The position numbers were made by a program. 64,000 nt of DNA from NCBI RefSeq assembly GCF_009931435.1, contig NZ_CP043414.1; one strand, given 5' to 3'. Positions 53,501 to 56,500 of this stretch are shown here, piece by piece (the stretch's first letter is position 1; each line of letters starts with the position of its first letter). Source of the DNA: Escherichia coli (GTDB lineage Bacteria; Pseudomonadota; Gammaproteobacteria; Enterobacterales; Enterobacteriaceae).

Positions 53501-56500
53501 TACGTTGTAGCACCTTTGCGCGAATTTCTCTGCCAAAATCAGTCAGATCGCGACAATTACGCACACCGGTCAGATCGCAGAATGCCTCATCAATACTGTA
53601 AATCTCGACGCGGGGCGATAGCTCTTCCAGCGTCGACATCACCCGATTGCTCATATCGGCGTAAAGCTCATAGTTACTGCTAAAGCAAACCACGCCACAG
53701 CGGCGAAACAGATCTTTTTGTTTGAACCAGGGATCGCCCATTTTAACGCCCAGCGCTTTTGCCTCGGCGTTGCGGGCAATAACACAACCGTCGTTATTAG
53801 ATAAAACAACCACCGGTTTACCCCATAAATCAGGGCGAAACACCGTCTCACAACTGGCATAAAACGCGTTTACATCACAGAGGGCAAACATCAGCGCATC
53901 GCCTTAACGACGTGGATCACCACACCAAAGACATCCAGCGTATCTTCGCTACTGATGGTAATGGGTGAATATGCACTGTTCATGGGAATAAGCTGCACTG
54001 TCGGGCGTAGTTGCAATTTTTTCACCGTAAACTCGCCGTCAACAGCAGCGATGACAATATCACCATGGCTGGCGGTAATAGCGCTATCGACAATCAGTAA
54101 ATCACCGTCACTAATCCCACCGTCAATCATAGAATCACCACTTGCTTTGACGAAGTAAGTCGCGCTGGGATGCTGGATCAACAGTTGATTCAGATCGATG
54201 CGCTGTTCAACGTAATCTGCGGCCGGTGAAGGAAAGCCACACTGAACAAGATCGCTAAATAGCGGAAAAGTCACAATTTCGCGGAGATCCGCAGGCTTGA
54301 TAAACAACATAATAATCTGCCTGAAGTTATACTGTTTTTATATACAGTAGTCTGTTCTTGCCAGCAGATCAATACTGATTCAGGCTATCAATATTTGTCG
54401 CTGCATAGACTGCTGATTTTTCGTTCTCTTATCCTGTGCTCACGCGGCCTTCTGGCGACGACGCTCATCCAGCAGAAATGAAAAATATCACCCGGCTAAA
54501 AATAGAATAGAAGCATTCGCCATAATGACATTAAACATTGTTTGATATTTATCATATTAATAGAAATAAAGACATTGACGCATCTCACCCGCCTAACTAT
54601 GAATTAGATGAAGTAAAATTCATTAATCGTTGTAAAACAGGGGTTTCATTACAATTTATATATTTAAAGAGGCGAATGATTATGACTGAAATCGTTGCAG
54701 ATAAAACGGTAGAGGTAGTTAAAAACGCAATCGAAACCGCAGATGGAGCATTAGACCTTTATAATAAATATCTCGATCAGGTCATCCCCTGGCAGACCTT
54801 CGATGAAACCATAAAAGAGCTAAGTCGCTTTAAACAGGAGTATTCACAGGCAGCCTCCGTTTTAGTTGGCGATATTAAAACCTTACTTATGGATAGCCAG
54901 GATAAGTATTTTGAAGCAACCCAAACGGTGTATGAATGGTGTGGTGTTGCGACGCAATTGCTCGCAGCATATATTTTGCTATTTGATGAGTACAATGAGA
55001 AGAAAGCATCCGCCCAGAAAGACATTCTCATTAAGGTACTGGATGACGGCATCACGAAGCTGAATGAAGCGCAAAAATCTCTGCTGGTAAGCTCACAAAG
55101 TTTCAACAACGCTTCTGGAAAACTGCTGGCGTTAGATAGCCAGTTAACCAATGATTTTTCAGAAAAAAGCAGCTATTTCCAGTCACAGGTAGATAAAATC
55201 AGGAAGGAAGCGTATGCCGGTGCCGCAGCCGGTGTCGTCGCCGGTCCATTTGGATTAATCATTTCCTATTCTATTGCTGCGGGCGTAGTTGAAGGGAAAC
55301 TGATTCCAGAATTGAAGAACAAGTTAAAATCTGTGCAGAGTTTCTTTACCACCCTGTCTAACACGGTTAAACAAGCGAATAAAGATATCGATGCTGCCAA
55401 ATTGAAATTAACCACCGAAATAGCCGCCATCGGGGAGATAAAAACGGAAACTGAAACAACCAGATTCTACGTTGATTATGATGATTTAATGCTTTCTTTG
55501 CTAAAAGAAGCGGCAAAAAAAATGATTAACACCTGTAATGAGTATCAGAAAAGACACGGTAAGAAGACACTCTTTGAGGTACCTGAAGTCTGATAAGCGA
55601 TTATTCTCTCCATGTACTCAAGGTATAAAGTTTATCACATTTAAAAATACAGCCGTTTTTTAAAGATTGAGAGTTACCTGCTGATAATAAGGTATCGGGT
55701 AACTCTCATTATGACAGAGCGCTTTCAAAAACAGGGCTACGAAATGGCGAGCATTCAGACGTATATTAAGAAAGCCCCCATCAACATCTATTAAATTTAT
55801 CACTGCGCCCAGTCAGGTTTATTTAAGATATGATCCTGCCAGTCAATCACTTCTGATTCTTTCACTGCGATATGACGCACAGAGATACGTTCGCCATGCA
55901 TTGCCGCTTTCGAACCAGTAAGCAGCGGATGCCACGCAGGTAAATCTTTACCTTCCGCCAGCAAGCGATAAGCGCAGGTTATTGGCAACCATTCGAATGT
56001 TGGCAGATTTTCACGGGTTAGTTTAATGCAGTCGGGTTCAAACTCGAAACGACGTTCGTAGTTCCGACATTGACAGGTTTTAATATTGAGCTGGCGACAG
56101 GCGACGTTAGTGAAGTAGATTTCGTCGGTGTCTTCATCCATCAGTTTATGCAGGCAACACTGACCGCAACCATCACACAACGACTCCCATTCCGCATCGC
56201 TCATTTCGTCCAGGGTTTTACTTTGCCAGAAAGGTACATCGCTCATCAGGTGTTCCGCCATTACGTTAAAACGCACCTTATAACCAGTCTGGCACAGCGA
56301 TGCAAGTTTTGCCGCCGCTTTCAGGCGGCAAAAAGTATTACAAAACGCGAGTTGTCAAAGAATGCCCATCGAAAGTGACTGTCAGCTCATCACCGCTTTG
56401 CAACGGGCCGACGCCATCAGGCGTGCCTGTCAGCACAACGTCACCGGCCTTGAGGGTAAAAAACTTGCTCATATAAGCGATCAGCGGAACGATTTTATGG

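Follow-up and report, generated by a model that had tools for sequence, protein, structure and literature searches.

An inverted repeat without a U-tract between the convergent hlyE and ycgN genes of Escherichia coli, possibly a protective 3′ stem-loop of Rho-terminated transcripts

In a 64,000-nucleotide (nt) stretch of Escherichia coli DNA (NCBI RefSeq assembly GCF_009931435.1, contig NZ_CP043414.1; hereafter the window, numbered from its first nucleotide), the convergent genes hlyE and ycgN are separated by a 206-nt spacer containing a perfect inverted repeat, which is predicted to fold into a stable hairpin on both strands and is followed by no U-tract on either. We propose, with a probability that we put at roughly 0.45, that this hairpin is a U-less stem-loop of the 3′ untranslated region (3′ UTR) protecting the 3′ ends of Rho-terminated transcripts, mainly the ycgN and ycgLMN messenger RNA (mRNA) and possibly the hlyE mRNA when hlyE is derepressed. 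The proposal draws on the position and stability of the hairpin in a convergent spacer that lacks an intrinsic terminator, and on published evidence for Rho-dependent termination just beyond it on the ycgN strand.

Structure and setting of the hairpin

The inverted repeat consists of two perfect 11-bp arms, 100% complementary and 19 nt apart, forming a 41-nt hairpin at 55668-55708 (1229368-1229408 in MG1655, where the MG1655 coordinate, from the MG1655 annotation, is 1285076 minus the window position). The left arm (TGAGAGTTACC, 55668..55678) and the right arm (GGTAACTCTCA, 55698..55708) enclose a loop at 55679..55697, within which the predicted folds contain a small inner 4-bp helix, making the effective loop shorter than 19 nt. 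Five of the 11 stem pairs are G-C, and on the + strand RNA the helix lengthens to 12-13 pairs through U.G and G-C, the loop then being 15 nt. An initial annotation of this DNA had located the repeat and its 19-nt loop correctly, but gave it a 10-bp stem ending at 55706, whereas the arms are 11 bp long and end at 55708.

The hairpin starts 75 nt past the hlyE stop, the distance that had been estimated, and ends 91 nt before the ycgN stop. A T6 run at 55655..55660 (+) lies upstream of the stem on the + strand and is an A6 run downstream of it on the − strand, in agreement with the initial description of a T-run that precedes rather than follows the stem. The sequence following the stem is TTATGACAG on the + strand and ATCTTTAAAAAACGG on the − strand; the 8-nt tails contain three U on + (UUAUGACA) and four on − (AUCUUUAA), with UUAU and AUCUUU, respectively, as the bases nearest the stem.

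Predicted RNA folding, which had been named as a check, confirms a stable structure on both strands (z about −4.7): −19.4 kcal/mol on the + strand (z −4.61) and −17.1 kcal/mol on the − strand (z −4.78), with 0 of 200 shuffles equalling either value. Of random 45-mers drawn from the window, 1-2% reach a fold energy as low as that of the 45 nt at the hairpin. Perfect 11-bp inverted repeats with a loop of up to 30 nt number seven in the window versus 0.48 ± 0.74 in first-order Markov simulations, and are thus about 15 times commoner than in those simulations. The hairpin is stable and not extreme, and the repeat is non-random and not exceptional; its architecture is common, because six of the seven perfect repeats, several of which have no T-tail, are located outside the scanned long ATG-started open reading frames (ORFs) and occur at or close to ORF 3′ ends.

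Among the other six repeats, those at 18893-18920 and 41058-41105 also lack a T-tail and begin 10 nt and 28 nt, respectively, after the end of a long ORF, and a third T-tail-less repeat, at 16055-16102, begins 74 nt past one ORF and shares bases with the called start of the following one; these three are candidate protective stem-loops of the same kind as the hlyE-ycgN hairpin. The repeats at 21343-21368 and 32420-32456 resemble ordinary intrinsic terminators, and the one at 11445-11489 (−25 kcal/mol), within a 277-amino-acid − strand ORF, is the sole intragenic member of the seven.

The segment of the window around the hairpin is E. coli umuC-umuD (−), hlyE (+), ycgN (−), and ycgM (−). The hlyE gene, also named clyA or sheA, has its coding sequence at 54682..55593 (+) with a TGA stop codon at 55591-55593, as given by the ORF call, RefSeq annotation of matching E. 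coli loci, and Pfam PF06109 homologues, and its 3′ UTR runs into the hairpin. The coding sequence of ycgN, which is convergent with hlyE, occupies 55800..56246 (−) with its stop codon at 55800-55802 (ORF and RefSeq annotation), and its 3′ UTR meets the hairpin after 91 nt.

Transcription termination and the proposed role

Intrinsic terminators typically have a loop of 3-8 nt and a U-tract of about 7-8 nt directly 3′ of the stem. A stable G+C-rich stem is also typical. The stem of the hlyE-ycgN hairpin has 11 perfect pairs at −17 to −19 kcal/mol, of which only 5 are G-C; a terminator consensus scan of 54300-56500 returned 0 matches. We rejected an intrinsic terminator on either strand, there being no U-tract, a loop of 19 nt (15 nt when extended), no scan match, and termination on the ycgN strand that is sensitive to bicyclomycin. 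The Rho-independent terminator for the reverse strand that the initial annotation had suggested fails in particular because the T-run, which precedes the stem on +, reads as an A-run after it on −, where only four of the eight tail bases are U.

Transcription that passes the hairpin from ycgN is stopped by Rho. The ycgN gene is transcribed both as ycgL-ycgM-ycgN and alone, with transcription start sites (TSSs) at MG1655 1227685 and 1228804 (Yan et al. 2018 supplement), and a published Rho termination region lies on the ycgN-sense (−) strand at 55582, which is MG1655 1229494 (+), 86 nt past the hairpin (Adams et al. 2021 Supplementary file 2, PMC7815308); this coordinate is coarse, being derived from 800-nt windows. 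The region is annotated as antisense to hlyE, with a Rho score of 4.70 (p 4.2e-12), and the reads upstream and downstream of it number 103 and 27 in the untreated sample and 169 and 208 with bicyclomycin (PMC7815308). The downstream/upstream ratio calculated from these counts rises from 0.26 to 1.23 with bicyclomycin, a change that antisense promoters in hlyE, perhaps unmasked by the drug, could inflate. As the read drop disappears with bicyclomycin, termination on the ycgN strand requires Rho, and the stopping is essentially lost under Rho inhibition; the bicyclomycin result covers the ycgN-sense strand only.

The hypothesis that Rho-dependent transcripts carry protective stem-loops at their 3′ ends was reportedly advanced by Peters et al. 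in 2012. Stem-loops have since been described at all but one of the E. coli Rho-dependent 3′ termini, in a scheme in which Rho stops transcription at scattered downstream points, the RNA is shortened by PNPase and RNase II, and the stem-loop both defines and shields the 3′ end present at steady state (Dar and Sorek 2018, NAR 46:6797, PMC6061677).

For the hlyE-ycgN spacer, we envisage that the repeat would be transcribed in the 3′ UTRs of both convergent genes, giving a stable stem-loop without a U-tract that would not itself halt RNA polymerase. Transcription of ycgN, whether as ycgLMN or from ycgN alone, would cross the hairpin, Rho would end the RNA beyond it, at the edge of the H-NS-silenced hlyE, and PNPase and RNase II would trim the ragged 3′ tails back to the stem-loop. 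Exonuclease trimming to the stem, and any consequence for mRNA half-life, are what we infer from this arrangement; the protected 3′ end of the ycgN-sense RNA is predicted at about 55664-55667 (MG1655 about 1229409-1229412). The palindrome being perfect, the same role is possible for the hlyE mRNA, whose analogous end, when hlyE is derepressed, is predicted at about 55709-55712.

The spacer itself supports this proposal: it separates convergent genes without an intrinsic terminator, and it places a stable stem 75 nt and 91 nt past the two stop codons. An RNA stability element is accordingly the best supported of the three functions that the initial annotation had listed, in that there is a stable U-less stem-loop in the 3′ UTR with a Rho region 86 nt downstream; no 3′ end is mapped at the stem itself.

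Distribution and variation

A blastn search (11-base word) with a 66-nt query finds the element in 5410 of 5426 complete E. coli genomes, with a median of one place per genome, every match having at least 95% identity and nothing annotated beneath it. Identity to the window over the query reaches 99% or more in only about 40 of the 5412 matching E. coli records (best 100%), and the closest genome found is that of strain 1190 (canine, Scotland), with 99.6% identity over 281 nt; at position 55681 the window has C, and K-12 and every other fetched allele have T.

Outside E. coli, neither hlyE within 4 kb nor the hairpin was found at any of the 80 ycgN loci from other enterobacterial species that we compared (0/80). 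In E. albertii, E. whittamii, and two further Escherichia species, homology with the window extends no further than the ycgN stop; on the far side it picks up again near 54414, upstream of umuD. Escherichia sp. MOD1-EC7003 (locus L006) keeps 71 nt adjoining ycgN, followed by the end of an IS1-like insertion sequence (IS). The hlyE homologues of Salmonella (86-88% DNA identity), Trabulsiella, and one other relative share DNA with the window only to about 25 nt past the hlyE stop, and the hairpin was not found at these three loci; Trabulsiella hlyE instead has a canonical terminator with a GC stem and T8 tail. The hairpin lies in about 110-180 nt of orphan DNA without a detectable relative outside E. 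coli, and by these homology limits the hairpin-bearing part of the convergent spacer (55596..55799), at about 55620-55730, is found in E. coli only.

The same comparisons outline an islet of about 1.39 kb (approximately 54414-55799), comprising hlyE and both of its flanks, which is found in E. coli only and at a variable spot between ycgN and umuD. At this spot, ycgN and umuD are separated in E. whittamii and Escherichia sp. E1V33 by 1.0-1.8 kb of unrelated DNA, and in E. albertii and two others the sequence departs immediately past the ycgN stop, with no umuDC within 4 kb downstream. In Salmonella and Trabulsiella, hlyE sits at different chromosomal sites, and the common DNA extends from about 54 nt before the gene to about 25 nt after it. 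The left boundary of the islet, near 54414, is straddled by a full-length match to the Rfam small RNA (sRNA) family C0299 (RF00119) in the umuD-hlyE intergenic region (54370-54448, −; 111.9 bits, E 1e-22).

Variation within the species was assessed in 36 sequences, made up of the window, 5 genomes, and 30 metagenome contigs; the contigs were found by their flanks, which kept the hairpin itself from influencing their selection. There is one segregating site in the 22 nt of the stems, two in the 19 nt of the loop, and 16 in the remaining 132 nt of the spacer. The left arm is invariant (0 variants in the 36 aligned sequences), the loop is polymorphic at 55681 (C/T) and 55691 (G/A/T), and the only stem variant seen, G55698A in 2 of the 36 sequences, changes the innermost pair of the right arm, giving a C/A mismatch on the + (hlyE-sense) RNA and a G.U pair on the − (ycgN-sense) RNA. 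The retention of pairing on the ycgN-sense RNA in this variant is an anecdotal hint at best. All five alleles seen retain the fold, at −15.2 to −19.5 kcal/mol.

Insertion sequences have also entered the spacer. In the natural isolate L129, IS1 interrupts the right arm (between 55702 and 55701), and in isolates L130 and L084 other IS elements lie at or within 3 nt of the stem. In total, the 206-nt spacer has five independent IS insertions at 55660-55770 (loci L129, L130, L084, L131, and L006), those besides the L129 IS1 being a DDE_Tnp_1-family IS at about 55670, an IS1A that lies 3 nt to the left of the hairpin at a locus that has lost hlyE, an IS5 near 55766, and an element resembling IS1 near 55730. 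The spacer has the appearance of a landing pad for IS elements, with the qualification that three of the five insertions were found through ORF fusions, so ascertainment is biased. In E. coli CFT073 (B2), hlyE is annotated as a truncated pseudogene and the downstream spacer and hairpin are intact; the pseudogene is consistent with the known clyA deletions in extraintestinal pathogenic E. coli (PMC4164713).

Several of these observations, and others from published transcript maps, weigh against a protective role. The hairpin is dispensable, because IS1 breaks one of its arms in a natural isolate, and polymorphism in the stems is not significantly below that in the rest of the spacer (Poisson P about 0.25 for the 36 sequences). 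A covariation test is impossible because the hairpin is absent from every other species examined. The 19-nt loop exceeds that of typical protective or terminator hairpins. For 3′ end mapping, the other check that had been named, published Term-seq data from three growth conditions contain no curated 3′ end within the spacer, perhaps owing to the weak expression of these genes (Adams et al. 2021 supplementary files 1 and 3, PMC7815308). The TERMITe and nanopore direct RNA sequencing supplements have no entry for the locus, and the Yan et al. 2018 tables give TSSs for the ycgN units and no transcription termination site. The C-over-G skew expected of a rut-like (Rho utilization) region was not seen either, with C/G ratios downstream of the hairpin of 0.83-1.17 for the ycgN strand (over 100-200 nt) and 1.2-1.3 for the hlyE strand, where the background has a median of 1.0 and a 90th percentile of 1.47; the missing skew is weak counter-evidence, as the enrichment after protective stem-loops is mild as published.

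The same body of evidence also fits a palindrome with no function, which we regard as a serious rival without favoring it. Here, the hairpin would have been acquired or have accumulated in AT-rich orphan DNA beside the horizontally acquired hlyE islet, may have been perfected by quasi-palindrome template-switching, and would be universal in E. coli since the species is young and the locus fixed. The 110-180 nt of DNA without relatives outside E. coli, the lack of significant extra conservation of the stem over the spacer, the lack of a mapped 3′ end, the IS elements inserted in and beside the hairpin in natural isolates, and the equally low fold energy of 1-2% of random 45-mers from the window are all as such a history would have them. 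It accounts less well for the excess of perfect 11-bp repeats, which at about 15 times the Markov level and mostly near gene 3′ ends suggest that they are usually retained for a reason; moreover, a position in the 3′ UTR ahead of a mapped Rho region is what a protective hairpin predicts, and the sole stem variant keeps a G.U pair on the ycgN-sense RNA.

Remaining alternatives and comparison with known systems

Convergent gene pairs often share bidirectional terminators, and the hairpin might be a weak, leaky intrinsic terminator working in one or both directions with Rho as a backup. Its stem is stable on both strands and the tails are mildly U-rich next to the stem (UUAU on +, AUCUUU on −), and a transition state of this sort between termination mechanisms has been discussed (Dar and Sorek 2018, PMC6061677). 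We nonetheless consider such a terminator unlikely. Only three of the eight tail bases on + and four on − are U, the loop has 19 nt rather than the usual 3-8, and the consensus scan was blank; the increase of the read ratio from 0.26 to 1.23 with bicyclomycin leaves little room for Rho-independent stops on the ycgN strand, subject to the 800-nt windows and to the antisense promoters that could inflate it.

A site that acts in the DNA rather than in RNA appears improbable, whether as a palindrome bound by a protein dimer or tetramer, as a cruciform, or as what is left of a terminal or recombination site of the element that brought in hlyE. The perfect dyad symmetry with half-site centers about 30 bp apart, the location within the roughly 1.39-kb islet that is specific to E. 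coli and occupies a variable ycgN-umuD spot, and a promoter-like TTTAAA-18-GATAAT that overlaps the hairpin on the + strand could be read in its favor. However, the hairpin is in single copy in every genome and the 64 kb contain no second copy of a half-site, which leaves nothing in favor of the protein-binding palindrome that the initial annotation had listed; there are no flanking direct repeats; the hairpin does not mark the islet boundary but lies 92 nt inward of it; the hlyE cassettes of Salmonella and Trabulsiella lack the hairpin; and promoter-like matches in the region are no commoner than in shuffles (4 vs 4.8). Equally hard to credit are the ideas that it is a relic of hlyE islet insertion, such as a hairpin recognized in single-strand recombination or by a transposase, or a co-opted strand-symmetric boundary that shields the H-NS-silenced toxin gene from ycgLMN read-through.

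Several other identities were tried and rejected. A repeat of the REP (repetitive extragenic palindromic), BIME (bacterial interspersed mosaic element), or ERIC (enterobacterial repetitive intergenic consensus) type is at odds with a single copy per genome and no Rfam match; an Rfam scan of 54000-57500 with E up to 10 gave nothing at the hairpin, and C0299 upstream of hlyE was its only hit. A miniature inverted-repeat transposable element (MITE) or an IS remnant was discounted on the flanks, AAAGAT and TTATGA, which are not direct repeats, the single copy, no viral match, and no true plasmid relatives. No exact copy of the hairpin was found in viral contigs, and in the plasmid collection the matches are in E. 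coli records only, all classed as non-mobilizable, of which at least the four of chromosome size (about 4.8-4.9 Mb) look like mislabelled chromosome sequence. We know of no match of the hairpin to a known motif or IS end; a partial resemblance of one arm to the outer end of IS10 is weak.

Two small ORFs were considered as genes, one of 27 amino acids on the + strand (55711-55794, starting 3 nt after the stem) and one of 47 amino acids on the − strand (55660-55803). The 27-amino-acid ORF was set aside on a TAC to TAG change in strain 789 and on differences in Escherichia sp. MOD1-EC7003 that are mostly nonsynonymous (about 6 vs 2 synonymous, by hand count). A decayed gene was likewise dismissed, as both palindrome-region ORFs match only E. 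coli hypothetical calls or IS-fusion artefacts in libraries of 5.8 billion and 1.8 billion proteins; an apparently divergent relative of a spacer ORF, P0125, was traced to a garbled assembly.

In the searchable literature we found no paper that describes the hairpin and none that names hlyE together with ycgN, the sole trace being a published clyA typing primer, p79, that anneals to the left arm. The hairpin has some practical relevance for engineering the clyA/hlyE locus or typing it by polymerase chain reaction, given this primer on one arm. If the 3′ ends of the ycgN and hlyE mRNAs are indeed set by the hairpin, it would be one more U-less protective stem-loop marking Rho-dependent genes, here one used by both genes of a convergent pair at the edge of an H-NS-silenced toxin gene of horizontal origin; the hairpin has little significance beyond annotation, and opens no new question.

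Set against known systems, the hairpin is like REP and BIME repeats, ERIC (also called IRU) repeats, and BoxC in being an extragenic palindrome at gene 3′ ends, where such repeats can stabilize the upstream mRNA, and unlike them in its single copy, the lack of an Rfam match, and the lack of similarity elsewhere in 5426 genomes. With intrinsic terminators, including bidirectional ones, it shares a location between convergent genes and a fold energy in the terminator range, and it departs from them in having no U-tract on either strand, an oversized loop, only 5 G-C pairs in 11, and bicyclomycin-sensitive termination on the ycgN strand. It differs from the protective stem-loops of Dar and Sorek in that no steady-state 3′ end is mapped at the stem, the loop is 19 nt (15 nt when extended on +), no C-over-G enrichment follows it, and it is common to two convergent genes and confined to one species; with that class it shares a stable 3′-UTR stem-loop that has no U-rich tail and no upstream A-tract and is not a REP, and Rho-dependent termination mapped downstream on the same strand. 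By these features the hairpin falls outside the intrinsic terminators, REP repeats, MITEs, and small genes, and in kind it is most likely an ordinary U-less 3′ stem-loop of Rho-dependent transcripts.

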